Positions 11,600 through 62,457 of a DNA stretch of 64,000 nucleotides are shown piece after piece; position 1 is the stretch's first letter, and each line of letters starts with the position of its first letter. The notes under the pieces were generated by a model that ran no database searches, had not been told where the DNA came from, and saw only the letters and a list, made by a program, of their open reading frames with translations. A program made the translations under genes and the position numbers. Source of the DNA: a virus; the IMG/VR virus record IMGVR_UViG_3300044475_000063, positions 1-64,000 of that record, one strand, 5' to 3'.

Positions 11600-11600
11600 A

Positions 11601-12533: not shown

Positions 12534-12534
12534 T

Positions 12535-13125: not shown

Positions 13126-13132
13126 GGTAAAA

Positions 13133-13513: not shown

Positions 13514-13516
13514 TTT

Positions 13517-35843: not shown

Positions 35844-35851
35844 AAAACCTC

Positions 35852-35880
35852 TTGCAATTGGGTTTTTGCTGACCTAGAAT
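35852..35880 (+). promoter_or_regulatory. promoter TTGCAA-N17-TAGAAT
   Basis: Exact 17-nt spacing. Lies directly upstream of the structured element. Confidence 0.5.
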
Positions 35881-35886
35881 TCTAAC

Positions 35887-36041
35887 TGTCAACGCCTGCC
35901 AGCGAAGACGAAAAAGAAAATGACTCTGTAGCAGCCCCAAGGTTTTTTGGTGGATCGCAAAATGGAGTGTGGACGTAACAGAGTCCGTTCACACTTCAGG
36001 TTGGCAGACCCGATCCACCAAAGCATCTTGGGGCTTTTTTT
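35887..36041 (+). ncRNA. candidate ~155-nt structured sRNA ending in an intrinsic terminator
   Basis: Coaxial helices 35933-41/36027-35 (9 bp), 35946-57/36011-22 (12 bp) and 35966-75/35986-95 (10 bp), followed by U7. No ORF. Confidence 0.45.
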
Positions 36042-36271
36042 CGTCTGCACTGTCTGAATTGACTAGCCTATCGTCGGGAACGAAAGCAACAGGGCGATAG
36101 CGTGAATACTGGAACTGTGGCAAAGCAAGGGAAGCACCAGAATGAGGCGTCGAAGATAGCACCTCACTTGCGCAAGGCTGTCGGGTCAGCGATTCCTCAA
36201 TGGATACGTTGTGATGGGCCTTAGCTAAGTCTAGGTCCGCTCAAACCTCTTGGATAATACGAAAGATAAGA

Positions 36272-39435: not shown

Positions 39436-39854
39436 AGGTTAAATCTTCCCGATTAATGGGTGTTAATGATATCGACGATTTGTTCAAGGCCAAGGCGCGC
39501 TTGATGCCTGATGATGTGAGCGAGATTCAGCTTAGGGTGCTTCTGGCGCTCGATTCGGCCAAGCGCTCACGCTGCCCACCAGGCCTCGCAAACCTGCTTA
39601 TCAAGCACATGGTCATGGCTGCTGCAATCGGTAGCCAGATGCGAGACCAAAGCTTCTACAATCTGGCGCAAAGGGCCTATGAGGCGCTTTACAACGCTTG
39701 CATGCGAGATACGGTGGACCTTGATCTAACAACCGGCGAGTACAGCGTAATCAAGCGAACGATTGCGCTATACTTGAACCATCTGCCTAAAGTCGAGCGC
39801 GGCTTGTTTGAGTTTGCAAGCAATCATGCTCAGAAAGTTTTAGCGCAAGGTTAA
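39432..39854 (+). CDS. hypothetical protein, last rightward early gene (possible late-gene regulator by position)
   Basis: 140 aa, ATGA overlap, followed by a strong terminator. Confidence 0.5.
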   Translation: MKVKSSRLMGVNDIDDLFKAKARLMPDDVSEIQLRVLLALDSAKRSRCPPGLANLLIKHMVMAAAIGSQMRDQSFYNLAQRAYEALYNACMRDTVDLDLTTGEYSVIKRTIALYLNHLPKVERGLFEFASNHAQKVLAQG

Positions 39855-39890
39855 AAATAGCGGCTAATTTAATAATTAGCCGCTATTTTT
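39853..39890. terminator. bidirectional terminator, perfect 17-bp palindrome
   Basis: AAAAATAGCGGCTAATT-taat-AATTAGCCGCTATTTTT between convergent genes. Confidence 0.8.
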
Positions 39891-40400
39891 CTATATTTCT
39901 ATATCAGCCCAGCTTTTCCCAAGTTTTATCATGCTTACGGTCGAATGGTGAACATTGAAGAGTTTTCCTAGCTCTTTGTTCGACATTCTAATCATAGAGG
40001 CTAGCTTTATATATCTAGCCTCTTCTTTGGTTAAGATTGATCTAGGATTCAACTCGCCAAAAATAGGTCGGCATGGCGATCTGCCTTTTGAAACCATATC
40101 ATTTGAATTGTCTTGTGCAGTACCAAGAAAAAGATGATTTGGGTTGGTACAGATAGGGTTATCACATTTATGGCATACCATAAAATCACCCGGCTCTATA
40201 CCAAAATGCAAAGCATAAGAAATTCTATGCGCGAATACAGATTGTCCGCGCTTGCCAACATGGGCAAGCCTCGCGTATCCCTTTTTGTCTACGAAACCAT
40301 TCCAAGACCAGCAATTGTCTTGCTTGACAACCTTTGACAGGTATCTCTGTTCTATTTTTGACAGAGGATCATTGATAAGAGGTAAAATAAGAATAGCCAT
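39891..40400 (-). CDS. HNH homing endonuclease
   Basis: ATG at 40400 after GGAG. CWSWNGFVDKKGYA...AHRISYA...CHKCDNPICTNPNHLFLGT, with a C-terminal HTH-like tail. AT-rich. Confidence 0.85.
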   Translation of the reverse strand: MAILILPLINDPLSKIEQRYLSKVVKQDNCWSWNGFVDKKGYARLAHVGKRGQSVFAHRISYALHFGIEPGDFMVCHKCDNPICTNPNHLFLGTAQDNSNDMVSKGRSPCRPIFGELNPRSILTKEEARYIKLASMIRMSNKELGKLFNVHHSTVSMIKLGKSWADIEI

Positions 40401-40454
40401 GAAGACTCCATGAAAGTCATTTGTGGTTAAAAGCCAACACGTGTGCAACCACTG

Positions 40455-40484
40455 TTGGCTTTGTCATTCTAACTCAGATACAAT
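40455..40484 (+). promoter_or_regulatory. candidate tRNA promoter TTGGCT-N18-TACAAT
   Basis: The -10 ends 9 nt before the tRNA 5' end. Confidence 0.45.
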
Positions 40485-40493
40485 GAATTTGTC

Positions 40494-40569
40494 GCGGGGA
40501 TAGCTCAGTTGGTAGAGTCTCTGATTTCCAATCAGATTGTCGTCGGTTCAAGCCCGATTCCCCGCTCCA
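40494..40569 (+). tRNA. tRNA-Gly (anticodon UCC), CCA encoded
   Basis: Hand-folded cloverleaf. 7-bp acceptor GCGGGGA/TCCCCGC, D arm GCTC/GAGT, anticodon stem TCTGA/TCAGA with loop TTTCCAA, T arm GTCGG/CCGAT with loop TTCAAGC, discriminator U, CCA. Confidence 0.9.
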
Positions 40570-41022
40570 AGAATTAGCGAAGGCAGATAGCCATGAACAA
40601 AAGCGCGTGCGCAAGTAGTCATGCTGGCATACTGGAAGTAGCTAAAGCAAAGCCGCTAATGCGTTATTAGGAATTGCGCCACACAGTTCGGAAACTGCGG
40701 CATGTGGCAAGAATAGTTGGTCCGATACCGCAGGGGCGCTCGGGACAATAAACGCCCCAGCATAAGCGCCGCCCTCCTTTCCCCAGCTATCGCTAGTGGG
40801 CGCAACAAGTAATTAGGCGTGATTATGCAGAGCCAAGTACAAGGGCGCAGAGCGTGGAAGCCGCTAGTTGTTTGTCTCGCAAGAGACGCCACATAAAACC
40901 AGCCCGTGACGCCCTATTGCAGGGCATATGAGCGAACGAAGTAAGGGCGGCAGTCTTTGCATCTTAGTAGGCCAAGGAAACGTTGGTTGGTTTTATGTGG
41001 TGCAATGCTCGGGGATTTTTTT
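40570..41022 (+). ncRNA. candidate large structured RNA (or packaging-site region) downstream of tRNA
   Basis: No credible ORF. 16-bp stem 40889-904/40985-41000, GNRA hairpin 40874-87 and several further helices; U7 at 41016-22. Confidence 0.3.
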
Positions 41023-41035
41023 GTCTATTGCCTAT

Positions 41036-41047
41036 CTAGAGTAGAAT
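41036..41047 (+). promoter_or_regulatory. CTAGAGTAGAAT motif (-10-like) 40 nt upstream of terS
   Basis: 11/12 identical to 43796..43807 upstream of the portal gene. Confidence 0.4.
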
Positions 41048-41086
41048 GTCAAGACAGAATTCACCATCACAGATTCAAGGCAAAAC

Positions 41087-41509
41087 ATGGCACTTACTCC
41101 AAAGCAAGCACTATTCGTCAAAGAATACCTAATCGACCTGAATGCAACTCAGGCCGCGATTCGTGCTGGTTATTCGGAAAAGACGGCTTACTCTATTGGT
41201 GAAGAAAACCTGAAGAAGCCTGAAATTGCAGAGGCGATTGCCGAGCATCAACAGGCCAAGGCAAAGAAGCTAGATATCACTGTTGATACGATACTTGCGG
41301 AGCTTGAGGAAGCGCGTCAATTGGCTCTAGAAACTGGTAAGGCTGGCCCAGCAGTTCAGGCTTCGATGGGTAAGGCAAAGATTTTAGGTTTGGAAAAGCA
41401 AGTCATCGATCATACATCTAGCGATGGCACTATGACGCCTAAAGCGCCTATCGTTGTTGACAAGGATACTGCTGCGCAGGTGGCGGCGAATATCAATGGT
41501 GGCATCTGA
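41087..41509 (+). CDS. terminase small subunit (Terminase_2/P27 type)
   Basis: ALTPKQALFVKEYLIDLNATQAAIRAGYSEKTA motif. Confidence 0.85.
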   Translation: MALTPKQALFVKEYLIDLNATQAAIRAGYSEKTAYSIGEENLKKPEIAEAIAEHQQAKAKKLDITVDTILAELEEARQLALETGKAGPAVQASMGKAKILGLEKQVIDHTSSDGTMTPKAPIVVDKDTAAQVAANINGGI

Positions 41510-42940: not shown

Positions 42941-42963
42941 ATAAAAACCCGCCGAAGCGGGTT
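42941..42963 (-). terminator. terminator of the minus-strand repeat-protein gene
   Basis: AACCCGC-cgaa-GCGGGTT with the T run on the minus strand only. Confidence 0.6.
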
Positions 42964-42970
42964 GATTATG

Positions 42971-43345
42971 TTAGCCGTCGCCGGAGCCGTAGCCGTAGCC
43001 GGAGCCGTAGCCGTAGCCGGAGCCGGAGCCGTAGCCGTAGCCGGAGCCGGAGCCGTAGCTGTCGCCGGAGCCGTCGCCGTAGCCGGAGCCGTAGCCGGAG
43101 CCGTCGCCGGAGCCGGAGCCGTAGCCGTAGCCGGAGCCGGAGCCGTAGCTGTCGCCGGAGCCGTCGCCGTAGCCGGAGCCGTAGCCGGAGCCGTCGCCGG
43201 AGCCGTAGCCGGAGCCGTAGCCGGAGCCGGAGCCGTAGCTGTCGCCGGAGCCGTCGCCGGAGCCGTCGCCGGAGCCGTCGCCGGAGCCGTCGCCGGAGCC
43301 GTAGCCGTAGCCGGAGCCGTCAGTAAAAGTTTTATTGGTAGCCAT
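42971..43345 (-). CDS. (Gly-X)n low-complexity protein, G/S/Y/D only after residue 10
   Basis: MATNKTFTD then GSGYG/GSGDG repeats. ATG at 43345 after AAGGA; overlaps the upstream gene by 14 nt. All codons are C-ending (GGC/TCC/AGC/TAC/GAC). Confidence 0.6.
   Translation of the reverse strand: MATNKTFTDGSGYGYGSGDGSGDGSGDGSGDGSGDSYGSGSGYGSGYGSGDGSGYGSGYGDGSGDSYGSGSGYGYGSGSGDGSGYGSGYGDGSGDSYGSGSGYGYGSGSGYGYGSGYGYGSGDG
42975..43320. repeat. hexanucleotide-based tandem repeat array (gccgga/gccgta/gccgtc/gctgtc)
   Basis: Read directly from the sequence. Always a multiple of 6 nt, so it stays in frame. Confidence 0.9.
43021..43200. repeat. perfect 2 x 90-bp tandem duplication inside the array
   Basis: 43021-43110 is identical to 43111-43200 base for base. 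Confidence 0.9.
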
Positions 43346-43706
43346 CAATGCTGTCCTTTGCAGCTTGGGTAGCTGGGATCAGTTCGCAGATGCCAGTCAG
43401 ATAAATTTCTGGGTTGACCACATCGACTTTCCCGCCGTCTTTTTTAAGGCCGTGTTGAGCAACGCCCGATAGCGCAACGCCGTCTTTAGCTTTCCACGAC
43501 CACAGGCGGCGCGAGTTTTTCAGAACTGCGGTATCGCCGTCAACGCTTACGACTTCGCCAGCATGCACACCAGCGGCATAGCAGCGTGCGATTACGTACT
43601 TGCCAACGAATGGATGAGGTAATACGGCTTGATATACTTGAGCCGACGCGCCAAACAAGGCGGCAAGTTCTTTAGCTTGGCCGATGGTGAGTTCGTTAAT
43701 GTTCAA
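43332..43706 (-). CDS. hypothetical protein (124 aa), partner of the repeat protein
   Basis: RBS present, globular-looking sequence. Transcribed away from the portal gene. Confidence 0.6.
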   Translation of the reverse strand: MNINELTIGQAKELAALFGASAQVYQAVLPHPFVGKYVIARCYAAGVHAGEVVSVDGDTAVLKNSRRLWSWKAKDGVALSGVAQHGLKKDGGKVDVVNPEIYLTGICELIPATQAAKDSIDGYQ

Positions 43707-49438: not shown

Positions 49439-50530
49439 ATGGCTACCTATCAAAGATACGACCGCGCCGAATTTAAGGCAACCAAGACTGACGAGGGCTT
49501 TCTAGTCGATAGCCCTATCGTCGGTCGAGTCGGCATTCAAGAGTATCGCCGCGCTGATGGCACGATGCGACGTGAGTTGCGCTTGCCTGAGAATGTATTC
49601 CATGCCGATGCGCTGGCTTCAATGCGCGGCAAGCCGATTACTAGCGGCCATCCGGGCTCGGGAAAAGTTACTGCGGCTGATTCTCACCGCGTGACTATTG
49701 GAACGATCCTGAGTGAAGGTCGTCAAGATGGCGATAATATGCGCACCGACATTGTTATCCATAATGTGGCGGCAATGGGGAAGAATAAAGAGCTTTCCCT
49801 AGGATATACGTGCCATATGGACGAAACGCCCGGTGTGCATCCGGTGTATGGCCCTTACGACGCTATTCAAGGCGTCCCAATTACCAATCATTTATCCGTT
49901 GTCCCCGTTGCTCGCGCTGGCGCAATCGCCCGCTTGAACTTGGATAGCATGGATCAGGAAGATTTTTCAACCCAGCAGGAGCAACAAACTATGAGCATGG
50001 TCAAAGTACGACTTGACAGCGGCTTAGAGTATGAATGCGCTCCCGAAGTCTCGGTGGCGCTCGACAAGCTGCGCTCCGATGCTGCGGAAGCTGCAACCAA
50101 ACTCGCGGCCATTCCAACCCTGACGGCAGAGCGCGATACGCTGAAAGCGCGTGTTGACGGCTTTGCGGCAGAACTGACTAAGGCTAAAGACGAAGGCAAG
50201 GCCGCTGGCCGCGCCGAAGTTGAAGCTAAGGCCAAGCTGGATGCGGTTGCTACTGCATTCAAGATCGACGCTAAAGACATGACTGAGCGCCAAGTCAAGG
50301 AAGCGGTTATCAAAGCCGTTACCCCAGCGCTGGTTCTGGATGGCAAAGACGATGCCTATATCGATGTTGCCTTCGCAATGGCCCAAGAGTTCAAAGGCGA
50401 TGCAGCCATGGCAGATCAGCGCCAGAAAGCGCAACATCGCAACGACGGAGGCGATAACAAAGCCCAAGGCAGCATGTCGGCGCGTGACAAAATGATTGCT
50501 CGTATGAGCGGTAAGAAGGAGGACAAATAA
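49439..50530 (+). CDS. prohead scaffold/protease-like protein (DUF2213-like N-domain + coiled coil)
   Basis: 363 aa. No obvious SD; TATTAT lies 7 nt upstream of the ATG. Confidence 0.7.
   Translation: MATYQRYDRAEFKATKTDEGFLVDSPIVGRVGIQEYRRADGTMRRELRLPENVFHADALASMRGKPITSGHPGSGKVTAADSHRVTIGTILSEGRQDGDNMRTDIVIHNVAAMGKNKELSLGYTCHMDETPGVHPVYGPYDAIQGVPITNHLSVVPVARAGAIARLNLDSMDQEDFSTQQEQQTMSMVKVRLDSGLEYECAPEVSVALDKLRSDAAEAATKLAAIPTLTAERDTLKARVDGFAAELTKAKDEGKAAGRAEVEAKAKLDAVATAFKIDAKDMTERQVKEAVIKAVTPALVLDGKDDAYIDVAFAMAQEFKGDAAMADQRQKAQHRNDGGDNKAQGSMSARDKMIARMSGKKEDK
50011..50271. repeat. 261-bp tract identical to 1..261
   Basis: Direct comparison of the two stretches. Confidence 0.85.
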
Positions 50531-51018
50531 TGCCTATCCCACAAACTACCTTCGGCCAGTACTCGGCTGCTGGCTTCGCTGGCTTGCTGTACGATTCTGG
50601 CTTCCGCGACACTATGTCTTATTCGGCAGAGGGCGCGATTCCATTCGGCACCTTCGTTAAACTGGGTACGAACAAAGAACGCCAAGTTCTGGCCCCTACC
50701 ACTGCTGCCGGTCAAGCCGCGCTGCTGATTGGCGTAGCTGCCGCAAGCGCCATGGCAGAACAAGCCTACCCTTCGACTGGCGCGGCTGCCGCATATGCTG
50801 CTACTGAAAGCGTATCGGTGCTGAAAGACGGCCGTATTTGGGTCCAAACCAATGATGCCGTAGTAGCTGGTGCAACCGCTAACTTTGTGCTGGCTAACGG
50901 CACTGTTACCGATGAAGCCGTTACTACCGGCATCGAAGCCTTCACGCAACTGACCGTGAAGTTTATCACCGGCACGACTGCTGCTGGCCTCGCTGTTGTG
51001 GAGATTGCGCCAAAATGA
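50530..51018 (+). CDS. head decoration/cement-like protein (copy 2)
   Basis: Paralog of 514..1002. Confidence 0.55.
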   Translation: MPIPQTTFGQYSAAGFAGLLYDSGFRDTMSYSAEGAIPFGTFVKLGTNKERQVLAPTTAAGQAALLIGVAAASAMAEQAYPSTGAAAAYAATESVSVLKDGRIWVQTNDAVVAGATANFVLANGTVTDEAVTTGIEAFTQLTVKFITGTTAAGLAVVEIAPK

Positions 51019-51995
51019 ACATGAAAACTGACAACATGCACTACGATGCCCAAGACCTGCGCATCATCGAAAACACCGGCCTGCTGCGTGAGGATGCTGG
51101 CGAGTCGGTATTCTTCGCTCGACAACTGGAGTATGTGCGCTCCAAGACCTATGATGTTGAGTACGTCAACCTGTCGGCAATGGAACTGTTCCCGATTGAT
51201 ACTTCGGTTCCCTCTGGCGCGAAGTTCATTACGTGGCGTCAATGGGACGGCGTAGGCTCGGCAAAGATCATCGCCAACTATGCGGACGATCTGCCACGCG
51301 TTGACGTGCAAGCGCTGGAAATGACCACTCCAATCCGTTCGATTGGTGACAGCTACGGCTACGACGTGCAAGAGATTCGTTCGGCGCAGTTCGCTGGCGT
51401 GGCTCTGGACGCAAAGCGCGCTACCCAGGCTCGCAAGGTCATCGACCAGAAGTTCAATCAACTGGCATGGTTTGGCGACACCGTATCAGGTCTGCCGGGC
51501 TTCCTGTCGAACGCGAATATCCCTGCTGTGGTTCTGGCTGCTGATGGTACTGGCTCGTCCAAGACCTTCGCAAGCAAAACGCCAGATAATATCATCCGCG
51601 ATATGAATGCTTTGGTGAACTCGATCTTCGTTACCACGAAGGGCATTCACCGCGCTAACGAACTGTGGATGCCTCTGGCTCAGTATGCCTACATTAGCTC
51701 GACTGCTCGCAGCGCAACCAGCGATACGACCATTCTCGACTTCTTCCTCGCCAACAACCCGTTCATTCAATCGGTCAAGCCGATCTTCGAACTGACTGGC
51801 GCTGGCGCTGGCGGTGTTGATCGCATGGTGGCTGCTGAAAACAGCGCTGATAACTACCAGATGAACATCACCATGCCGTTCATGCAGCACCCTCCACAGC
51901 CTCGCAACCTGTACTTTGAAGTCCCTTGCGAAGCCCGCTTCGGCGGCGTAACCATCGAACGTCCGCTGGCATTTGCATACGCTGACGGCATCTAA
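51015..51995 (+). CDS. major capsid protein (copy 2)
   Basis: Paralog of 999..1979 with few aa changes. Confidence 0.8.
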   Translation: MNMKTDNMHYDAQDLRIIENTGLLREDAGESVFFARQLEYVRSKTYDVEYVNLSAMELFPIDTSVPSGAKFITWRQWDGVGSAKIIANYADDLPRVDVQALEMTTPIRSIGDSYGYDVQEIRSAQFAGVALDAKRATQARKVIDQKFNQLAWFGDTVSGLPGFLSNANIPAVVLAADGTGSSKTFASKTPDNIIRDMNALVNSIFVTTKGIHRANELWMPLAQYAYISSTARSATSDTTILDFFLANNPFIQSVKPIFELTGAGAGGVDRMVAAENSADNYQMNITMPFMQHPPQPRNLYFEVPCEARFGGVTIERPLAFAYADGI

Positions 51996-52023
51996 ACTCG
52001 CGTGATGGTGAGTGTGTAGCACT

Positions 52024-52051
52024 AGCCCGCCCTTCACCGGGCGGGCTTTTT
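52024..52051 (+). terminator. intrinsic terminator after capsid gene (copy 2)
   Basis: Same hairpin as 2008..2036. Confidence 0.8.
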
Positions 52052-52067
52052 ACTTTTGGGGAATTAC

Positions 52068-53414
52068 ATGGCACTTTTCGGGCGTACAAAACAGCAGGCG
52101 CTAGCTGCGATAGCGCGCACAAAAGATCGCAAGGGGCGTCGTCGCGTAGGTGGAGGGCAGGGGAATATTGTTCCAGCAGTTTCGCCTCTGCGTTTTGTTA
52201 CCACGCAAAACAGGATGGCTAGCGGCCTTGGAACCGTTCCTGCAAATCGTTCTGCATGGGACTTCCGTATGCCTTACGTAATCGCCAGTGGCGACGTGGA
52301 TGGTATCGTTTTCACATGGACCAATCAGAACCCAGCAGCCCCAGACTCAACCGCGCTTTCGCCTATTGTTCTGAATGACGTCTACATCGAAAACTCTAAC
52401 GCAACCGCTGCAAAACAGCTTTCGCTCGACGGACAAAGCTACCCATACACGCTGGTATCTGGAGCCAATGATATCCGGCATGTGAAATTGCTCCCATCCG
52501 ACCTTGGCGTTTCAGTTTTCACGCCCGGCGATACCTTGTACGTAAAAGGCCGTGGCAGCATGACTCCTGGTATGCAGTTCCCGAACATGGCAGACCGTAT
52601 TCCAGTATCGGACGCTAGCAAAATTTTGTGGACCCTCTACGACCCTACCGCTACTACGCCATCCGCGCTGTCAACGCCGGGAGTCCAGACGGTTGTATCG
52701 GGGGCTGCCTTCCCGATTACCAGCAGCGGCGGATTCTGCCCGTTTGCTCTCGGCACGTTTGTGCAGCCGTTGGCCTCTCGTAAGCCAACGTTTGCCGGCT
52801 TCGGCGACAGTAATTTGTTTGGCTTCCGGGATACCGCCCTTTTGTACCATGGAAAAGGCGAATTCCAGCGCATGCTTACTGGCAACGGAACGAATAGCGA
52901 CCTCATGGCAGGCGGGAATTTCTCTGTGACTGGTTACACGATTCAGCAGATTAACCACCCAAAAATCATCTACTGGAGCCAGTTTGCGGACAAGATTATT
53001 GATGAAGTTCTGGTCAATTCGTTTGGCTCCACTGGTGTAACCGACCAAGCCACTATTCGGCCTATTAAACAAGCTCTATGGGACGCCTATAAATCAGCAA
53101 ACCCAAATGCTACGGTGTATAGCTGCGATGTCGGCCCGCGCACTAATGGTGCATGGACACTTGCAGATCAGTCGGACCAAACTTATTTTGCTGGCTTTGG
53201 TCCGGGCGGCAACATTGAGACGTTCCGCACATGGTTTATTGCACAGGCCGGGCTGCCGAACACCTACAACACGCTGGTGCAGTTCACTGCATGGCGCGGC
53301 AGTCCAGACCCGCTGAAATGGCCGGGGGGTGGCCTTACTGATGACGGCACTCACGCGCTATCAACGACCGTAGCAGCAAAAGCAGCACAACTGCGTAGTA
53401 TTGTTTTGTCTTGA
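52068..53414 (+). CDS. virion-associated protein: same basic N-terminal leader + SGNH/GDSL-type esterase
   Basis: Leader MALFGRTKQQALAAIARTKDRKGRRRVGGG. FAGFGDSNLFG (block I) and DDGTHAL (block V). Confidence 0.6.
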   Translation: MALFGRTKQQALAAIARTKDRKGRRRVGGGQGNIVPAVSPLRFVTTQNRMASGLGTVPANRSAWDFRMPYVIASGDVDGIVFTWTNQNPAAPDSTALSPIVLNDVYIENSNATAAKQLSLDGQSYPYTLVSGANDIRHVKLLPSDLGVSVFTPGDTLYVKGRGSMTPGMQFPNMADRIPVSDASKILWTLYDPTATTPSALSTPGVQTVVSGAAFPITSSGGFCPFALGTFVQPLASRKPTFAGFGDSNLFGFRDTALLYHGKGEFQRMLTGNGTNSDLMAGGNFSVTGYTIQQINHPKIIYWSQFADKIIDEVLVNSFGSTGVTDQATIRPIKQALWDAYKSANPNATVYSCDVGPRTNGAWTLADQSDQTYFAGFGPGGNIETFRTWFIAQAGLPNTYNTLVQFTAWRGSPDPLKWPGGGLTDDGTHALSTTVAAKAAQLRSIVLS

Positions 53415-53484
53415 TATTTAGACATAAAAACAGAAATCTTCTGCAAGGTTATAATCTAATTTCATCATCACTACGGAGAATCAA

Positions 53485-53772
53485 ATGAAAATCGAAAACA
53501 TTAGCGCACGTCTGTACATTCTTTCGGATGGTACTAAGCTGATCCCTAACGAAACTACCAAAGGCGTTTCTGACAGTCTTGCAAAAGAAGTCGAGGGCAT
53601 CAAAGAACTAAAGGTGACGCAAGAAACTAAGGCTCAAGAAGTTGAGTTCAAGGAAGTACCAACTACTGTCAAGGAACTGAAAGCGGCGCTTGATAGTCTG
53701 AATGTTGAGTACGCATCGAATGCCGACAAGGCTGAACTGCAAGCCCTGTACGACGAAAACAAAGCCAAGTAA
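53485..53772 (+). CDS. hypothetical structural-module protein (copy 2)
   Basis: Paralog of 3744..4031. Confidence 0.6.
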   Translation: MKIENISARLYILSDGTKLIPNETTKGVSDSLAKEVEGIKELKVTQETKAQEVEFKEVPTTVKELKAALDSLNVEYASNADKAELQALYDENKAK

Positions 53773-53774
53773 TC

Positions 53775-54194
53775 ATGACGACCGCGCTGGAATATTTTCG
53801 CATCATCGGCAAGCAGTTCGCCGCGCTATCTGACGCTGAGGTACAGGCATGGTTAGATATGGCGACGACACTTGGTGCTGCCGGTTGTCTCTTGGGCGAT
53901 CCGGCTAACCTTGCTACGGCGCTTTATGCTGCACACTTGCTGCAACTAGATGCGGAGAATTCCAGCGGCGAAGGCGGGCGCGGGCCTGTGAAGTCAGAGA
54001 AAGAAGGCGACTTGGCCCGCTCCTATGGTACTGGCGGCTATACCGATGGCTGGCTAGGTTCCACAGGCTACGGGCAACAGTACGCAAACATGCAGCTTGG
54101 ATGCACTGGCGCTACGATCATGACGCGCTATGGTCAAGATATCCCACAAGGAATCGAGGTAATCAATGGCCTCCCGCCATACTACAGACCGTGA
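53775..54194 (+). CDS. head completion protein, DUF4054-like (copy 2)
   Basis: Paralog of 4034..4453. Confidence 0.55.
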   Translation: MTTALEYFRIIGKQFAALSDAEVQAWLDMATTLGAAGCLLGDPANLATALYAAHLLQLDAENSSGEGGRGPVKSEKEGDLARSYGTGGYTDGWLGSTGYGQQYANMQLGCTGATIMTRYGQDIPQGIEVINGLPPYYRP

Positions 54195-54624
54195 TTTGGG
54201 CCTAAAGCGCTTCATGCGAGAACTTCAGAAGGCGCGAGTCACTGAGGTTGTAGTGGGTGTGCAGCAAGGCTCTGATAACGCCGATGGTGAATCTATTGCT
54301 GAGTATGCCGCATACAATGAGTTCGGCACAGAAAAGATTCCTGAGCGCTCTTTTATGCGCTCAGCGTTTGATGAAAACGTAAATGACCTGAGCAATCAAC
54401 TGGATCGAAGCTATGCGCAGATTCAAGCAGGAACGATGACCGTTTATCGTGCGCTCGGCTTAGTCGGTTTGCGCCATCAAGATCAGATACAGCACAAGAT
54501 TGATACGAACGTGCCGCCGCCCAATGCGCCAGCAACGATTGCAGCTAAAGGATCAAGCCACACGCTGATTGACACAGGCGCTATGCGCGCTTCAATTCGA
54601 TACATTATCAGGCCCGTACGATGA
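54166..54624 (+). CDS. HK97 gp10-like protein (copy 2)
   Basis: Paralog of 4425..4883. Confidence 0.5.
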   Translation: MASRHTTDRDLGLKRFMRELQKARVTEVVVGVQQGSDNADGESIAEYAAYNEFGTEKIPERSFMRSAFDENVNDLSNQLDRSYAQIQAGTMTVYRALGLVGLRHQDQIQHKIDTNVPPPNAPATIAAKGSSHTLIDTGAMRASIRYIIRPVR

Positions 54625-54959
54625 GTTTTAGAAAGCCACAAACGATTATCCGCACTACGCCGGGACAGTATGCCGATGGCAAGTGGGTAGAAGGCGCACA
54701 AGTTACTGTGCCTATTTTGGCATCGGTTCAGCCTGTAACGGCAGAAGATCAGATCGTCATGCCAGCCGGTAAGCGATTGTCAGACTACGTGAAGCTTTAC
54801 ACCTCGACGGAGCTAATCCCGTTGAGTGAAGGTAGTCAGCAGCAGCCTGACCGCTTAGTTTGGCGCGGCAAGGAATATGAATGTATTGAGCTTGGAGTAC
54901 GACAGATGCGGGTAATTGACCACTTCAAAGCGATCTTCTCATTGGTGCAGCAATCATGA
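54621..54959 (+). CDS. neck/tail-completion protein (copy 2)
   Basis: Paralog of 4880..5218. Confidence 0.55.
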   Translation: MSFRKPQTIIRTTPGQYADGKWVEGAQVTVPILASVQPVTAEDQIVMPAGKRLSDYVKLYTSTELIPLSEGSQQQPDRLVWRGKEYECIELGVRQMRVIDHFKAIFSLVQQS

Positions 54960-55474
54960 TTTCAGATACCGTATTGCAGCGCCTAATTGTGCAAATCAGC
55001 GGCGAACCATCCGGCAAAGTTATCTGGATGAATGAGAATGCGCCGCGCCCCGTTTTGCCATATCTGGCGATTCGGGTTAGCCCTGCGCGCCGCATCAACA
55101 AAGACCGCTATTCAGACGTAGATGCTAACGGAATTCAGACGGTAGTAGGCGACCGAGAATTTACCTTGAGTGTGCAAGCGTTCGGCTACGATAGCCCTGT
55201 CTCGTACTTGCAAGACTTTGCCGACAAGCTGCAACTAATCACGAACAATGACCGCTTCCGCGCCCAAGGAATGGCTTTGCGCGATACAAGTACGGTCATG
55301 GATATTTCTTCGTTGCTGAGCAATACTAAAATCGAGAAACGCGCCAATCTAGATTTGACTATCGGCTATCGCTCGGTGCAGACGGATAATGTGGGCGTCA
55401 TCGAAACCGCAAACATCGAGGGGCGCGACAATGGTATTAATTCGCCCGTTTATACCATCATCGCTAACGTTTAA
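54956..55474 (+). CDS. neck/tail terminator-like protein (copy 2)
   Basis: Paralog of 5215..5733. Confidence 0.55.
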   Translation: MISDTVLQRLIVQISGEPSGKVIWMNENAPRPVLPYLAIRVSPARRINKDRYSDVDANGIQTVVGDREFTLSVQAFGYDSPVSYLQDFADKLQLITNNDRFRAQGMALRDTSTVMDISSLLSNTKIEKRANLDLTIGYRSVQTDNVGVIETANIEGRDNGINSPVYTIIANV

Positions 55475-55558
55475 ATCAGAAATAGCAATTGTTTTTACCT
55501 ATTGAAATTAAAGGTATAATCAGTTTTATCTAAACCACGTTTGATAGGAAGCCCGAGA

Positions 55559-56890
55559 ATGGCTACTCTCCAAGACATCACAAATGTAGTTATTACTTTG
55601 AACACTGCTTCTGTTCAGCGTGGTAACTTTGGTATTCCCCTGATTGCTGCTCCTTTGGCGTCTTTCTCTGAGCGAGTCCGTAGCTACACGGATTATGACG
55701 CTCTGAATCCAGATAACCTCCCGGCAAATGTGCAAACCGCACTGTCGGACGCATTCGGCCAAACACCTCGCCCTTCCGTGGTTAAAGTAGGCCGCTTGAG
55801 CATTGCAAGCGTGGTTATTACGCCTGTTGATGCAACGCCTAACGGCGTGTACTCGCTGAACGTAGGCGCTACGCTTGTTTCGGTGACTGCCGTTGCATCG
55901 CCAACCACTACCACTATCGCCGCGCAGCTTGCAGCCGCGATTACTACTGCGCTTGGCGCTGGTGGCACGGCAACCGCATCCGGCGCTAACGTGACGATTA
56001 CTTACAGCGGCAATGTTATCCCGCTAACCAACTTCGTAAAAGTGGCATTCGGCATGATTACCCCATCGTCTACTGCTGGTATCGTCGCAACCGATCTGGC
56101 TGCAATCCAAGCTGCTGATAGCGTTTGGTACTTCCTGATTATGGCGGAGCGTACCAAGCAACGCGTACTAGATGCTGCTGCATGGGTTGAGACGCAAGAC
56201 AAGATGTTCTTCGCCGCAGCAGACGAGGCTGCGATTCTGACTCAAGGCGGCACTACTGACCTTCTGGCGCAATTGAAGGCGCTGAACTATTTCCGAACTG
56301 TTGGCGCATATCACAGCACCGCAGCGACCGAATACGCCGATGCCGCATGGGTTGGCCGCGTCTCGCCTACTCAGCCGGGTTCGGAAACTTGGGCGCTGAA
56401 ACGCCTTGCTAGCGTCACTAGCGACAATCTGTCGAAAACCGATCAAACTACGATCTTTGGCAAAGGCGGCAATACCTTTGAGCGCTATAGCGATCAATTC
56501 TCGCTGACCAATCTGGGTAAAGTTGCTGCTGGTGAGTGGATCGACGTTATCCGCTTCCGCGACTGGCTGAAAGATTACATTCAGACGAGCATGGTTCAAC
56601 TGATGGTGAACCGTGACAAGATTCCGTACACCGATGCGGGTATCCAACTGCTGGCAACCAATCTGCGCGCCTCGCTGCGCCAAGGTCAGACCGTTGGCGG
56701 CATCGCACCGGATGAAACCGCAGAGGATGGCACCAAACGTCCCGGCTTCAATATTACTGTGCCTCGCGCTTCGGAAGTTGACGACGCAACCAAAGCATCG
56801 CGCATCGTCTATCTGAAATTCAACGCCCGCATCGCTGGCGCTATCCATGTAGCCGATATTAACGGCGCGCTGGCTTACAGCCTTGACTAA
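55559..56890 (+). CDS. tail sheath protein (copy 2)
   Basis: The ATG at 55559 matches the copy-1 start (MATL..). Confidence 0.8.
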   Translation: MATLQDITNVVITLNTASVQRGNFGIPLIAAPLASFSERVRSYTDYDALNPDNLPANVQTALSDAFGQTPRPSVVKVGRLSIASVVITPVDATPNGVYSLNVGATLVSVTAVASPTTTTIAAQLAAAITTALGAGGTATASGANVTITYSGNVIPLTNFVKVAFGMITPSSTAGIVATDLAAIQAADSVWYFLIMAERTKQRVLDAAAWVETQDKMFFAAADEAAILTQGGTTDLLAQLKALNYFRTVGAYHSTAATEYADAAWVGRVSPTQPGSETWALKRLASVTSDNLSKTDQTTIFGKGGNTFERYSDQFSLTNLGKVAAGEWIDVIRFRDWLKDYIQTSMVQLMVNRDKIPYTDAGIQLLATNLRASLRQGQTVGGIAPDETAEDGTKRPGFNITVPRASEVDDATKASRIVYLKFNARIAGAIHVADINGALAYSLD

Positions 56891-56904
56891 TCAGGAGAAA
56901 ACAA

Positions 56905-57333
56905 ATGAGTGCAGGTGATGTGCAACGTACTTATGACCCGCAACAGGTGATTATCACTGTTGGCGGTGCAATTGTAAGTGGCTTTACGGACGGCGACTTT
57001 ATTACCGTAAGATATGACGAAGAACGCTACAACGTTAAGGCAGGCGCTGATGGCGAGGTAGCACGAGCCAAGAATGCTAACCGTATGGGGACATTTGAAA
57101 TTACCCTTTCGGCTACTAGTGCTGCAAATGCTGAATTGTCGGCGCTGTTCAATCTGGAAATGCTCGGCGGCTTTGACGTAGTTCTGCCTGTTGCTGTGGC
57201 TGACTTGTCTGGAACTTCTGGCGCCTTTGCTTCCAAGTGCTGGATTAAGCAAGCGCCTGATTTCACTCGTGGCAAGGAGGTAGCAGACCAGACGTGGGCT
57301 ATTTCGGCTGCTGATTTGACCATTTCGTACTAA
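56905..57333 (+). CDS. tail tube protein (copy 2)
   Basis: Paralog of 7658..8086. Confidence 0.75.
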   Translation: MSAGDVQRTYDPQQVIITVGGAIVSGFTDGDFITVRYDEERYNVKAGADGEVARAKNANRMGTFEITLSATSAANAELSALFNLEMLGGFDVVLPVAVADLSGTSGAFASKCWIKQAPDFTRGKEVADQTWAISAADLTISY

Positions 57334-57361
57334 GTAGTAACCTCACCATCACGGAGAACAA

Positions 57362-57823
57362 ATGCAACGCGAAACTTTTATCATCGGTAACAAAGAATTC
57401 TCGGCAATGAAGATCGCGCCGTTCCAGGCGAACTCTATTGCTTTGAAACTGCAAAAGATCATCCTGCCAGTATTGGGTGAATTCACTGGTGGCGGCAAAG
57501 GCAACTTGATGGATATGGATATCAGCGGCCCGCTTAAAACGCTGTCTGAGAGCCTTGACGACAAGGTTATGACTGATATCGTGCTGCCGATGTTTAAAGC
57601 CTCTGGCGTGGTTTGCGTAAGCGAGAACGTCAAGGTTGATAGCGAAGGCGCTATCAATAAAGTATTCGTTGACGCCGATGGCTTGGCTGATCTATACGAA
57701 CTGATTTACGAAGTCGCCATGTTCAACTTCAAGCCTTTTTTTATCAAGCTGAAGGACCGCTTTGGAGCCAGCGTTACCGGAGCAAATCAAGCGGAATTGA
57801 CTTCAGCCGTTGCGGCAGTCTAA
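57362..57823 (+). CDS. tail assembly chaperone (copy 2)
   Basis: Paralog of 8115..8576. Confidence 0.7.
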   Translation: MQRETFIIGNKEFSAMKIAPFQANSIALKLQKIILPVLGEFTGGGKGNLMDMDISGPLKTLSESLDDKVMTDIVLPMFKASGVVCVSENVKVDSEGAINKVFVDADGLADLYELIYEVAMFNFKPFFIKLKDRFGASVTGANQAELTSAVAAV

Positions 57824-58005
57824 GCCCTACGTTGCAAGATGAGCTTTGGCTATGGCGTCCAATACTAGCTGGGAAATGCACGCTAGAGGGAGTTAAAAGC
57901 GGAGTAGTGACAGTAGAGGATTTGCTTAAGCTAAATGCTTTGCTTGATATGTCTGAATGCTACCAAGCCTATGCAGATGAGAAATCGAAAAGCAGCCGGA
58001 AATGA
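57362..58005 (+). CDS. tail assembly chaperone -1 frameshift fusion (copy 2)
   Basis: T7 slippery run at 57736-57742. The -1 frame is open to TGA 58003-58005. Confidence 0.6.
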
Positions 58006-58019
58006 CCGGCTGTTTTTTT
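57993..58019 (+). terminator. intrinsic terminator before tape measure gene (copy 2)
   Basis: Same hairpin plus T7 as 8746..8772. Confidence 0.7.
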
Positions 58020-58030
58020 AAGGAAGAGAG

Positions 58031-59815
58031 ATGATTGTACGGGAGCTTTTAAGTCGCTTCACTTTCGCGGTTAATGAAAGCCAATTGCGCCGCTATGAGC
58101 AAGGCGTGAATAACTTCCGTCGCCAAGCAGACGAGGCTGCGGAATCGTTCCGTAATATCTTCTTGGCCTTTGCTGGCTTTGGCGCTTTGCGCTCTATTGC
58201 GCATGTCGCAGATGATATGCAATCGCTTGAGGCCCGAGTAGGCCAATTGCCGCAAACGATCACGAGTGCTGCTGATGCTTTCGACGTTGTTACGGCCAGC
58301 GCAAGCGCCGCACGTCAATCTATTGACGCATACACCAACTTCTACATTAAGCTGCAACACGCTGGCAAAGATTTCATCAAGACCCAAGAGGAAGGGCTTT
58401 TGATTACTGATACGATCAGTAAAGCCCTTATTCTTGGCGGCGCTACGGCGCAAGAGCAAGCTTCTACGCTGCTCCAATTTGGCCAAGCAATCGGCTCAAA
58501 TGTGCTGCAAGGCGATGAGTTCCGCGCCCTTGCGGAATCCGCGCCTCAATTGGTCGATGCAATTGGTAAGCAACTAGGAATTGCTCGTGCTGACCTGAAA
58601 AAATACGCTAGTGAAGGAAAGCTAACCTCTAAAGTAGTAGTAGAGGCGGTGAAAGCTATTTCTAGCCAGTTCGATGACAGGTTCAAAGAAATGCCGCTGA
58701 CTATCGGATCAGCAACAACTATCGTTGCTAACCGATGGGCTGTATTTATCAATCGCTTGAATCGTGAAAGTTCTGCCGTCACAAAAACTGCTAATTTTTT
58801 CTTGAAGTCGTTTGATACCATCGAAAAAGGTTTGGCGGATATGGTCAAGTTCTTCGGAGGCGCAACCAATACTCTCAAGTTCTTCGGTATCGCCTTGGCT
58901 GCTGCATTGGCTCCGTTCGTGTTCCGCACTGCTGCGGGAGCAATCGCATTCCTGCTTTCTCCTATGGGCCTATTACTGGCTTCGCTGCTGCTGCTTGGCT
59001 TGGCTATTGAGGACTTCTACCAATGGATGACAGGCGGTAAATCTGTATTCCAAGAGTGGTTTGGCAACTTTGATGATGCCAAGAAAAAGCTTGATGAATA
59101 TAGTGGCTGGATTCAGGCAGTGAAAATTGCTGTTGTATCCGCTGTTGGTGTGATGGTTGCAAATTGGATTTGGGCTGCTGGCATTGCCATAGTGAGTGCT
59201 GGGCAAGCATTTGGTGCTTGGATAGCTGGCCTTGTACGTTTTGGTATTGCAATGGCAGTTAATTTATTAGCAGTTGGCGCTTGGGTTGTAGGAATTTTGG
59301 CGCAAACCGCAATTCTTGTGGCTGGTTGGATTGCATCATTCGTAAGTATGGCGCTGGCTGCTGCACCAGTGATTTTACCAATCCTAGCAATTATCGCTGC
59401 TATAGCATTGGTTGTATCAGGTATTTACTACCTGTACAAAAATTGGAATAAAGTATGGACAGGAATAAAAGATATAGCATCTAATGTATGGGATGGTATA
59501 TCAGGCGGATTTAGTGCTATGGTAAATAAGTTAAAAGTCTACTGGAATTCTTTTAAATCATTCTTCGGAATGAAGGTAGATACAACTATCGGCGCAACTG
59601 GAACAGCACCTGTTGTTACTCCTACCGTTGCTGCTGGGGCTGCTGTTTCTGCTGGTGGAGTTGCTGGCGGTAATTCATCTGTTGTTATTAATCAGACTTT
59701 GCCACCAGGAAGCCCGGCGGAAACAGCAGAAGCAGCTAGGGTAGCAACTCAACAGGCTTTGGATGATGCAGCAATTAGCCGTTTATCTCGGCAGATGGGG
59801 CAGGTAGGTGGATGA
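58031..59815 (+). CDS. tail tape measure protein (copy 2)
   Basis: 594 aa paralog. Confidence 0.9.
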   Translation: MIVRELLSRFTFAVNESQLRRYEQGVNNFRRQADEAAESFRNIFLAFAGFGALRSIAHVADDMQSLEARVGQLPQTITSAADAFDVVTASASAARQSIDAYTNFYIKLQHAGKDFIKTQEEGLLITDTISKALILGGATAQEQASTLLQFGQAIGSNVLQGDEFRALAESAPQLVDAIGKQLGIARADLKKYASEGKLTSKVVVEAVKAISSQFDDRFKEMPLTIGSATTIVANRWAVFINRLNRESSAVTKTANFFLKSFDTIEKGLADMVKFFGGATNTLKFFGIALAAALAPFVFRTAAGAIAFLLSPMGLLLASLLLLGLAIEDFYQWMTGGKSVFQEWFGNFDDAKKKLDEYSGWIQAVKIAVVSAVGVMVANWIWAAGIAIVSAGQAFGAWIAGLVRFGIAMAVNLLAVGAWVVGILAQTAILVAGWIASFVSMALAAAPVILPILAIIAAIALVVSGIYYLYKNWNKVWTGIKDIASNVWDGISGGFSAMVNKLKVYWNSFKSFFGMKVDTTIGATGTAPVVTPTVAAGAAVSAGGVAGGNSSVVINQTLPPGSPAETAEAARVATQQALDDAAISRLSRQMGQVGG

Positions 59816-60468
59816 GTGAGCAAGTAGGGATTCTGTTTAGGGATGGGAAACCATTATCTAGGTTTGAATCTGATCTATTTTCCATGGAGTTTGACGCTGT
59901 TCTTACAGAGGGCCACTCATGGTCAAATGATATTACGTCTAACCCTGTAGAGCGTGGCGTAGATGTTACTGACCATATCCGCGAGATTCCAGATCAAATT
60001 ACACTTGTTGGGTTTGTTACTAATACGCCTTTTCTTGAAGGCGTAGATACAAACACAATTACAGATGACGACGAGGATAAAGTACAAGCAATAATTGATA
60101 GGATGCGTCTTATCAGGGCAGAAAGATCAACTGTAGTCATATATACTAAATATGTTCAATATAAAGATATGGCTATTAAGTCAATAGACTTTACGCGTGA
60201 TTCAAGCAATACAAATTCTGTAATTTTCACAATACAATTCCAGAATATAAAATTGGTTGAAACACAAACAGTTGATGTTCCTGCTGGTATAAGCAAAAAA
60301 CTAGACAAAAAATCTGGCGATGCGGTAAAGAAAAAAACTGAGCCACAAAAGGCAGGCGGGGCAAAGCAGCCGAAGGAGCCTGAAAAGGCAAGTTCCGTAC
60401 TTTCAAACACTTTGCCAAAACTAAAAGATTTTATTTTGGGGAAACAGCCAACAATCCCAGGATCGTAA
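59812..60468 (+). CDS. tail/baseplate protein (copy 2)
   Basis: Paralog of 10571..11227. Confidence 0.55.
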   Translation: MSEQVGILFRDGKPLSRFESDLFSMEFDAVLTEGHSWSNDITSNPVERGVDVTDHIREIPDQITLVGFVTNTPFLEGVDTNTITDDDEDKVQAIIDRMRLIRAERSTVVIYTKYVQYKDMAIKSIDFTRDSSNTNSVIFTIQFQNIKLVETQTVDVPAGISKKLDKKSGDAVKKKTEPQKAGGAKQPKEPEKASSVLSNTLPKLKDFILGKQPTIPGS

Positions 60469-60473
60469 TAATC

Positions 60474-60839
60474 ATGACAATAGCATTTGAAATACCATTA
60501 CTTTCTGAAACTGCGGATCAAACGCTAGATATCACGATTGATAGCATTCCTTACACAATGCGCGTATTGTGGAATGTGCGCTTTGAATACTTCTCTCTAA
60601 GCATCTATGAGAAGGGAGGCGATGCTATCCTGACCAATGTTAAGATGGTTCCATACTTCCCACTGGTAGGCATATATAGGAAATTTCCTTTTGCTGGCGA
60701 TCTTTATTTTCTTCATCGTGGTGGAAAGACCTATCGCCCAGGATATGAGGATATTGGAGGATCGGCCTATGGGCTGTACTACTACGATCCAGAAACGCCG
60801 ATTGAGTACCCTATACCTTTAGAGCCTGTGGAGCCTTGA
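60474..60839 (+). CDS. tail/baseplate protein (copy 2)
   Basis: Paralog of 11234..11599. Confidence 0.55.
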   Translation: MTIAFEIPLLSETADQTLDITIDSIPYTMRVLWNVRFEYFSLSIYEKGGDAILTNVKMVPYFPLVGIYRKFPFAGDLYFLHRGGKTYRPGYEDIGGSAYGLYYYDPETPIEYPIPLEPVEP

Positions 60840-60840
60840 T

Positions 60841-61773
60841 ATGCCATTGTTCAATAGGGTTGCTGAGTTGGTTGTAGGCCAATCAGGCAAGGAAGGCTTG
60901 CTCATTAAGGATTTGCGTATTTCATTTTCGATTGAGAAGACGCTCACGGAGACGCTTAACACGTCAACAGTTCGCATCTACAACCTGAATCCGACCTCGC
61001 GCAAGCTGGTGGAGACGCCAAACAATGCGGTTATATTGAAAGCTGGATATAGTCAGGACAAAGGGGCGCTGACAATCTTTGTTGGAATCGTGCGCCGCTC
61101 CTTGACAGTGCGCGAGGGTGTTGATTGGGTGACTGAGCTAGAGCTTGATGACGGACTGATTGCATACCGTGACAGCAAGTTTTCGACTAGCTTTGCTCCG
61201 GGCGCAAAAGGCGTTGATGTTCTTAAGCAGGTCGCTGATAAATTCGGCATTACTGTAGGCAAGCTGCCGGATGCAATCGAGCAAAAGATTTACCCTAACG
61301 GCTTCTCGTTCGTTGGCCGCGCTCGTGACGCTATGGCAAAGGTCTGCAATTACTTGGGCCTTGAATGGTCGATTCAAAATCAGACTATTCAAGTTCTGAA
61401 AAAAGGCGGCTACCGAGAGCGCACGGCAATTGTCATTTCACCAGAAACCGGCATGATTAAGTCGCCGCAGCTTGAGGCTAAGACGATGAGTGATAAGCTA
61501 GCAGCAAAGCAGGGCTTGACGACGAATAGCGCAGGCGTAGTGACAAAGAAATCAGATAAACTGACTGTCAGCGGGAATCCGCCAAAAGACCGCCTTGAGG
61601 TGCAGGGATACAAGGTTGAGACTCTTATGCAGCCTACTATCTTGCCTGGTGACGTAGTTAAGATCAAAGCAGAAGGTGTTGATAACTTCTTTAAAGTGGA
61701 GAAAGTTACCCATCAAGGAGATACTCATGGTGATGAATGGGTATCCGAATGCAGCGTACGATTTATAAGTTGA
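60841..61773 (+). CDS. baseplate hub-like protein (copy 2)
   Basis: Paralog of 11601..12533. Confidence 0.55.
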   Translation: MPLFNRVAELVVGQSGKEGLLIKDLRISFSIEKTLTETLNTSTVRIYNLNPTSRKLVETPNNAVILKAGYSQDKGALTIFVGIVRRSLTVREGVDWVTELELDDGLIAYRDSKFSTSFAPGAKGVDVLKQVADKFGITVGKLPDAIEQKIYPNGFSFVGRARDAMAKVCNYLGLEWSIQNQTIQVLKKGGYRERTAIVISPETGMIKSPQLEAKTMSDKLAAKQGLTTNSAGVVTKKSDKLTVSGNPPKDRLEVQGYKVETLMQPTILPGDVVKIKAEGVDNFFKVEKVTHQGDTHGDEWVSECSVRFIS

Positions 61774-61774
61774 T

Positions 61775-62449: not shown

Positions 62450-62457
62450 TCTAGAAT

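Follow-up and report, generated by a model that had tools for sequence, protein, structure and literature searches.

The window analyzed here is a stretch of 64,000 nucleotides (nt) from a virus (IMG/VR record IMGVR_UViG_3300044475_000063, positions 1 to 64,000), and its positions 40455-41086 raise the question of what a prophage maintains between its early genes and its terminase genes when no protein appears to be encoded there. Two related prophages lie in tandem within the window, and the leader studied here, which opens with a promoter-like site and a tRNA gene and ends at the terminase gene terS, belongs to the second. An earlier reading of the sequence alone (the sequence-only reading) had proposed a structured, tRNA-linked RNA, possibly of a new class; this holds for the 3′ third of the region but not for the whole stretch. 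We favor, with a probability of about 0.6, the interpretation that 40455-41086 is a non-coding leader, or “RNA-gene island,” between the early genes and the terminase genes, a slot found in the temperate phages to which this one belongs, and that it harbors a truncated, remodeled copy of a recurrent two-helix module, Pa-Pb. The leader RNA sequence downstream of the tRNA, about 440 nt long, has homologs in the leaders of two phage loci, L245 and L231 (L-numbers denote fetched phage loci or contigs), and the 3′ 135 nt (40869-41004) has the two-helix architecture of the module.

The gap from the tRNA to terS (40570 to 41087) comprises 517 nt without a credible open reading frame (ORF). Its largest stop-to-stop fragments are at most 85 amino acids (aa). 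Six-frame fragments of the gap gave no Pfam match, the longest (85-aa) fragment had no relative among 5.8 billion proteins, and none of 6857 ORF fragments from 102 related loci aligned to the gap in tblastn searches, all of which bears out the earlier remark that some 450 nt here lack a credible ORF. A pseudogene remnant was rejected after tblastn with the VRR-NUC-like ORFs of relatives, Pfam and protein searches all proved negative. A small protein or type I toxin was also considered for the 38-aa ORF at 40928-41041, which had only two matches, both to long multi-stretch proteins, and belonged to no small-protein family.

The tRNA-Gly(UCC) with its encoded CCA was confirmed by both ARAGORN and Rfam, and is 83% identical to the tRNA-Gly of a relative, L099. 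Comparison with known RNA families was made by cmscan against Rfam 15, over 40300-41200 at E≤10 with lax filters and over the whole window at the gathering threshold. Besides the tRNA, the leader contains no match at either the gathering threshold or E≤10, and no transfer-messenger RNA (tmRNA) was found in the window by ARAGORN or Rfam. In blastn searches with the region, INPHARED phages returned tRNA matches only and PLSDB plasmids returned none; 10 matches to a 19-mer from the terS leader were attributable to chance.

The large ornate RNAs GOLLD and ROOL had been put forward as a model for this region. They are non-coding, often prophage-borne, often located by tRNAs and possibly co-transcribed, and their function is unknown (Weinberg et al. 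2017, PMC5737381). Like them, the window leader lies in a prophage and adjoins a tRNA. However, GOLLD and ROOL are 580–800 nt long, multi-junction and pseudoknotted, whereas the leader is 517 nt in total with a conserved unit of ~135 nt, and the module described below is a 90–147-nt two-helix element of Proteobacteria phages with no covariance-model match at E≤10. Given the lack of any such Rfam match and a thermodynamically ordinary fold, the leader is not assigned to this type of RNA.

The “unusual density of helices” described for the region is not apparent when its folding is compared with that of dinucleotide shuffles. The RNA fold of 40570-41030 has a z score of +0.12 on the plus strand and −1.69 on the minus strand, and 150-nt sliding windows across 40500-40850 range from −0.7 to +1.9 on the plus strand. 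Only the 112-nt inverted-repeat hairpin at 40889-41000 is exceptional, with z scores of −4.4 (plus strand) and −3.8 (minus strand); it forms 21 pairs, allowing G-U and one mismatch, and just 2 of 425 300-nt tiles of the window reach 20 pairs. The sole non-Watson-Crick position of its 16-bp stem is G.U on the plus strand and C.A on the minus strand. All of the helices listed in the sequence-only reading are present at their coordinates, but one helix exceeds chance from sequence alone and the remaining helices are judged solely via relatives. Long hairpins upstream of terS are not enriched across 73 terS relatives.

Relatives were gathered via terS, via a shared sequence box and via a 140-aa gene. 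In the syntenic terS relatives L098–L102 and L132, whose terS is 69–86% identical to that of the window, the slot is kept: an ORF-poor stretch with same-strand tRNAs (Gly-Met-Thr in L099; Asn and Glu in L100) is followed by VRR-NUC-like or GIY-YIG nuclease genes or small ORFs and then by terS. No blastn similarity exists between the window leader and these six loci. Of the 73 more distant terS relatives, a same-strand tRNA lies no more than 2 kb upstream in 18%, and an ORF-free gap of more than 300 nt upstream of terS stands at about the 90th percentile. This slot corresponds to the late-operon leader, and in several phages RNA genes form an island there. Immediately 5′ of the VRR-NUC-like gene and terS, two loci carry tRNA-like genes (L098 2437-2512 and L101 3486-3561); the L098 gene scores 48 bits with the tRNA model, and ARAGORN reports both as “tRNA-???” with an irregular anticodon loop length.

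Two of the relatives' leaders have in common the box CACGCATGCTGATT, located 3′ of a hairpin whose stem differs in sequence yet still pairs, and an IMG/VR scan for this box added 98 loci. With nhmmer, the window leader compared with all fetched loci identified L231 at E of about 1e-13 (1.4e-15 against L231 alone), the match covering window positions 40721-40898. The closest relative, L245, was reached via the upstream 140-aa gene (P0124, 89% identical). Its blastn blocks with the window are 93%, 84% and 88% identical, and the flanking genes, the 140-aa gene (83% DNA identity) and terS, are also homologous. Three tRNAs, two modules and a two-piece tmRNA of the beta type are found in the L245 island, which is closed by a terminator 60 nt short of terS. 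The phage-borne tmRNA is of the two-piece (permuted) beta-proteobacterial form (RF01850, 148 bits) and occupies L245 3958-4380, between the tRNAs and terS.

Alignment of the window with L245 and L231 separates the proposed helices. Both arms of the helix 40760-70/40816-28 are invariant in all three while the interior differs, a pattern that is consistent with a helix but short of proof. A hairpin at 40851-65 has the form CGGA-UGAAAGC-UCCG in L231, with three pairs changed on both sides, and is supported by the three-relative comparison. The same comparison gives no support to the GGGGCG/CGCCCC and GCCCT/AGGGC pairings, nor to the long-range pair GCCGCCCT/AGGGCGGC of the sequence-only reading, the first arm of which is kept in L245 and the second not.

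The Pa-Pb module itself was found by pattern in 28 distinct copies with one architecture. Pa is a 5–8-bp hairpin of free stem sequence, with loops such as CGUAA, GNRA or GAAAG, and is separated from Pb by at most one nucleotide. Pb pairs 5′-CCACACG-CAU-GCUGAUUG with CAGUCAGC-AGY-CGUGUGG-3′, giving 7 bp, a 3x3 internal loop and a further 8–9 bp, and closes a variable apical domain of about 30–100 nt. A covariance model, R1, was built from 13 module copies and gave 41 forward matches at E<1e-6 in 37 loci, 90–147 nt in length. R1 further matched L001, the top full-length relative by terS in IMG/VR, as well as L245 (31 bits) and the cultured Ralstonia phage Gervaise (30.5 bits), whose record MT740740 is about 55.8 kb long. 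Reverse-strand matches, where reported at all, score about 17–73 bits lower. The Pa and Pb architecture is also recovered when five copies are folded independently by minimum free energy (MFE).

Covariation was examined in a 41-sequence alignment fitted to R1. Paired cells make up 94.5% of the total, compared to 80.1% in shuffles; 19 of the 23 pairs change on both sides (122 cells); and the covariation score is 0.361 vs 0.128, a value reached by none of 500 shuffles. When partners are slid, pairing falls to 26–52%. GC, CG, AU and UA are all seen at the same pair of the Pa stem, and one U.G pair is kept in 40 of the 41 sequences. The 16-bp stem and the GNRA hairpin picked out in the sequence-only reading are the two helices of this covarying, recurrent module.

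Going by Rfam 15, from which the family is absent, and by the HK620, Ralstonia phage Gervaise and RefSeq E. coli records inspected, in which the module sites carry no annotation, the Pa-Pb modules form a previously undescribed motif family. Modules lie on the strand of the neighboring tRNAs or terminase; a same-strand tRNA is found within 300 nt of 10 of 42 modules, some of which abut it. The terminases downstream are Terminase_2 with Terminase_6C, Sf6-type terS with Terminase_6, Terminase_3, and Terminase_6N, at distances that can be 0.4–2.7 kb. In a subset of modules, CCACCACA, the anti-Shine-Dalgarno-like UCUCCUCC and a terminator follow within 40–170 nt, and this subset has sub-threshold matches to RF02278, “Betaproteobacteria toxic small RNA” (25–43 bits; gathering score 50). 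RF02278-like sites (UGUCUCCUCC plus terminator) occur at L163 1682-1754, L176 2766-2822, L170 1741-1807 and L231 4575-4622, at the 3′ end of several module-bearing leaders. A resemblance of some family members to 23S rRNA (CGUAACUUCGGGA) was dropped, as no large-subunit rRNA model matched.

The window copy is found at the position orthologous to the modules of L245 and L231. Its Pa is intact, with a loop that is GCAA in the window, GGAA in L245 and GUAA in L231 and thus GNRA in all three. Its Pb is extended by 40905-07/40980-82 and closes an 80-nt apical domain of two hairpins. Compared to the family consensus, only the outer CCACA/UGUGG is kept, at the position orthologous to that in L231 and L245; the inner 11 bp differ on both strands from the relatives yet pair perfectly, and the window Pa-Pb matches L245, L231 and L100 in the shape of its MFE fold. 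An intermediate form is seen in L245, where Pb reads CCACAAG-AAA-GCCGAUUGA / UUAGUCGGC-CUC-CUUGUGG. The continuous helix of the window falls within the range of the family, because continuous-helix variants that keep only CACA/UGUG also exist in the second L245 module (CACACAUCAUCGG/CCGAUGAUGUGUG) and in L100 (CACAAAUAGUAGG/CCUACUAUUUGUG).

The three-way alignment also suggests how this form could have arisen. Within the apical domain, CUUAGUAGGCC appears to be a remnant of the ancestral Pb 3′ strand, and the extra GGUUGGUUUUA that follows it is an inverted copy of the Pb 5′ strand. The inner 11 bp may therefore have been rebuilt by inverted duplication of the 5′ strand, with the old 3′ strand displaced into the apical domain; such a duplication would explain the near-perfect 16-bp repeat.

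A second change lies just downstream. Homology to L231 ends at 41008, and homology to L245 resumes at 41011 (L245 4563). About 1.05 kb of L245 is thereby skipped: its second module, the tmRNA and the terminator 5′ arm. The window island is probably a deletion derivative that lost ~1 kb at 41008/41009. The sequence UCGGGGA-U7 corresponds to UCAGGGCA-U7, the 3′ arm and U-tract of a terminator whose 5′ arm is missing in the window; in L245 the complete terminator is GCCCUGA-CUCCUA-UCAGGGC-A-U7. The U7 run noted earlier at 41016-41022 is present, but it is the U-tract of a relative's terminator together with its 3′ arm rather than a lone run, and the terminator scan called no intrinsic terminator at 41016-22.

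Several observations weigh against the proposed interpretation of the leader. The R1 search of the whole window with default filters found no match, and with filters off the top match in the region (40869-41002, plus strand) scores a weak 10.9 bits, E 0.002 for 751 nt. The boxes CACGCAUGCUGAUUG / CAGUCAGCAGYCGUGUGG have no match with three or fewer mismatches in the region; three 3-mismatch matches elsewhere in the window are fewer than chance predicts. The window copy has neither the 3x3 internal loop nor the conserved U.G, and may be a relic without function. In its 5′ 300 nt the leader folds like random sequence, and conservation of this part is seen in two relatives. The covariation counts lean toward structure because the alignment is fitted to the covariance model, and for a role in RNase III cleavage or stability, considered below, it counts that Pb is interrupted by the internal loop in most members. 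The promoter TTGGCT-N18-TACAAT attributed to the tRNA is present, but as a consensus match only: four such sites were found near the tRNA vs 2.6 ± 1.4 expected, which is no enrichment.

The leader might alternatively be read as a decaying descendant of an RNA island, without function, in which the deletion and a template-switch duplication are damage, the stem is a by-product of that duplication and not a maintained helix, and only the tRNA matters. We consider this rather unlikely. The loss of the consensus boxes, internal loop and U.G, the 10.9-bit score, the ~1-kb deletion that halves the terminator and the ordinary thermodynamics of the 5′ part would all be expected of a relic, and the repeat, near-perfect but for a single G/A difference between its arms, has a recent look. 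However, Pa is intact and its loop is GNRA in all three relatives, the rebuilt helix restores pairing, and the continuous-helix Pb variants of L245 and L100 carry many compensating changes with the outer CACA/UGUG kept.

The position of the hairpin, 87 nt upstream of terS, also brings to mind a pac or cos region, a DNA site bound or cut by terminase. TerL is closest to headful packagers such as Vibrio phage CP-T1, and two Logan contigs from different runs (L096 and L097, from SRR35899580 and SRR35908198), both 100% identical to the window, begin exactly at 41009. This coordinate is the end of the L231 homology and the L245 deletion junction, so the contig ends are explained by the mosaic boundary that lies there, and the shared start fits a mosaic junction with no physical DNA end needed. 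The module precedes four terminase types rather than one small-subunit family, up to 2.7 kb away, and one strand scores much higher than the other, on which the kept U.G would be A.C. A packaging site is accordingly very improbable.

The 16-nt terminal inverted repeat enclosing 80 nt could instead bound a miniature inverted-repeat transposable element (MITE)-like mobile element. The window contains no second copy and no target-site duplication, the flanks GAGACG and TGCAAT sharing none. The 16-mer stem arm had 29 matches in IMG/VR, all single arms without flank similarity and attributable to chance, and a 20-mer from the hairpin element had none in JGI metagenomes. Both flanks and the outer 5 bp have homologs in the family helix of L231 and L245. 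The chance that this is a mobile element is minute. Strand specificity, covariation, the kept U.G and the presence of four terminase types favor an RNA over both of these DNA-level explanations.

If the leader does act as an RNA, the island would be transcribed rightward as a single precursor from which RNase P and 3′ processing would excise the tRNA. Pa-Pb could then act in cis as a double-stranded stalk that serves processing or stability, in the manner of the RNase III-type targets flanking rRNA; it would separate and protect the RNAs of the island as well as the 5′ terminus of the terminase mRNA. Since the terminator is halved, transcription from the putative tRNA promoter would probably continue into terS. 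This stalk mechanism is put forward tentatively, by analogy. RNase III stalks, such as those of rRNA operon spacers or of the T7 R1.1 type, have a helix of ~16–20 bp, often with a small internal loop. In them a helix closes a domain inside a polycistronic precursor, as the module may do by analogy; the difference is that the Pb sequence is conserved far beyond the need of RNase III. A further possibility, which we hold no more firmly, is that Pa-Pb is a new phage RNA class that organizes the expression of RNA islands and the entry to the late operon, the window form being a working variant. The reader of such an RNA would be a conserved host component, for example RNA polymerase, RNase III or P, or an enzyme that handles tRNA or tmRNA.

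Precedents exist for structured RNAs beside phage tRNAs. The species 1 and 2 RNAs of T4 are small, structured, stable RNAs in the phage tRNA cluster, with a role that is unknown. Like them and like phage tmRNAs, the module is a structured RNA beside, and probably co-processed with, phage tRNAs; a two-piece tmRNA is part of the L245 island, whereas the window island has none. The lambdoid pR′-tR′ leader (lambda 6S; pR′/qut/tQ of HK620, NC_002730) occupies the same slot, from the last early or regulatory gene to the first late gene, and is likewise untranslated and terminator-ended. In contrast, neither a Q gene nor a qut site was identified in the window, and the window late genes begin with terS, not lysis.

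R1 has no match in HK620, but another conserved block of the HK620 leader, located between the annotated pR′/qut and tQ, recurs in some family members. This block, GGUGUGGUGAAUGCGCAGGCUGAUGCGCGC...CCGGCCACCACA (L241; HK620 16034-16194), is found in about 100 phage records, lytic phages included, with 92–99% identity in Klebsiella, Escherichia, Salmonella and Erwinia phages of about 39–159 kb, Ackermannviridae among them. Most of the listed records carry no annotation for it, and no Rfam family matches it.

A different mechanism for the module would be processive antitermination of the HK022 put type, in which two nascent stems bind RNA polymerase and permit read-through into the late genes. 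The put RNA is about 70 nt long, with two stem-loops in a V shape (PMC9378689). The module resembles it in having two adjacent stem-loops, at most 1 nt apart, in a nascent phage leader, and in L231 and L245 a promoter-like site precedes it and an intrinsic terminator follows, all ahead of the late genes; several members have a T-run 90–170 nt after Pb. The put RNA acts without a phage protein, and conservation of the Pb sequence across phages with different proteins suggests a host target for the module. On the other hand, the module is larger (90–147 nt) with a variable apical domain, shows no sequence or covariance-model similarity to put (R1 finds no match in the HK022 genome at E≤1) and stands at another distance from the promoter, more than 1 kb in L231. 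In addition, two tandem copies occur, the HK620 leader already has an annotated Q/qut system, and the window copy lacks the conserved nucleotides. An antiterminator of this type is improbable.

Gene-free tRNA slots ahead of late genes are common in phages, and their other content is seldom annotated. A role of the module in controlling processing or read-through would, if true, offer a new handle on how temperate phages link the expression of RNA genes to late transcription, and Ralstonia phage Gervaise, as a cultivable carrier, makes it experimentally accessible. For the window alone the outcome is modest: a normal tRNA and a truncated, remodeled leader copy. The features of the locus are collected in Table 1.

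Table 1. Features of the leader and its surroundings, in window coordinates.
Feature	Position	Strand	Basis or remark
Bidirectional intrinsic terminator	39853-39890		17-bp perfect hairpin, A5 and T5 at flanks (terminator scan)
HNH_3 homing-endonuclease gene, free-standing	39891-40400	−	Pfam PF13392; PHROG HNH endonuclease
Promoter-like TTGGCT-N18-TACAAT	40455-40484	+	9 of 12 consensus matches; directly upstream of tRNA
tRNA-Gly(UCC), CCA encoded	40494-40569	+	ARAGORN; Rfam RF00005, 65.4 bits (gathering score 29)
Leader block in common with L231 3527-3596	40572-40642	+	79% (nhmmer, blastn)
Leader block in common with L245 3009-3079	40645-40715	+	93%; contains the nested hairpin
Nested hairpin	40678-40708	+	Arms identical in L245; absent from L231
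Candidate helix GCAUAAGCGCC / GGCGUGAUUAUGC	40760-70 with 40816-28	+	Encloses variable hairpin (RNAalifold)
Hairpin AGCG-UGGAAGC-CGCU	40851-40865	+	RNAalifold; not among the helices of the sequence-only reading
Pa, GUCUC-GCAA-GAGAC	40874-40887	+	5-bp hairpin; intact
Pb	40889-41000	+	Arms 40889-40904/40985-41000; 15 Watson-Crick pairs and one G.U
CUUAGUAGGCC, probable relic of ancestral Pb 3′ strand	40963-40973	+	Three-way alignment; L245 has CUUAGUCGGCC
UGCAAUGC, junction 41008/41009, UCGGGGA and U7	41001-41022	+	UGCAAUGC is the 8 nt after Pb, as in L231
terS-proximal leader	41023-41086	+	Inside 41011-41232, 88% identical to L245 4563-4785
terS (Terminase_2)	41087-41509	+	Pfam, PHROGs; opens packaging/structural operon
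TerL	41454/41496-42926	+	Downstream of terS; Pfam, PHROGs

On its 5′ side the leader is preceded by the HNH_3 gene, an insertion between the last early gene and the tRNA that has no counterpart in L245. The terminator next to it closes the early operon, which runs rightward, as well as the HNH gene, which runs leftward. A 10-bp hairpin, AAAGCCAACA-N13-TGTTGGCTTT at 40430-40462, lies upstream of the HNH gene start and overlaps the −35 of the tRNA promoter-like site; it belongs to the strongest-folding 150-nt window of the neighborhood (z −3.3 and −3.9).

On the 3′ side, no TerL relatives of more than 50% identity were found in GTDB genomes. Between TerL and the portal gene, 42962-43372 is a repetitive stretch that reads Ala/Gly/Val on the plus strand and Gly/Ser/Tyr/Asp on the minus strand. 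The structural modules of the two tandem prophages (window 1-14780 vs 50011-63712) are 79–91% identical, with local replacements.

A second ORF-free stretch of the window, 430 nt at 35844-36271, harbors a Betaproteobacteria-1 RNA (RF02932) at 36066-36186 with 57.2 bits (gathering score 49.4), preceded by a promoter-like TTGCAA-N17-TAGAAT. Also 5′ of this RNA is a hairpin of ~150 nt with a T-run at its end, the strongest inverted repeat in the window (arms 35933-57/36011-35 and 35900-15/36037-52). This stretch is followed at 36272 by an Ant-like anti-repressor gene.

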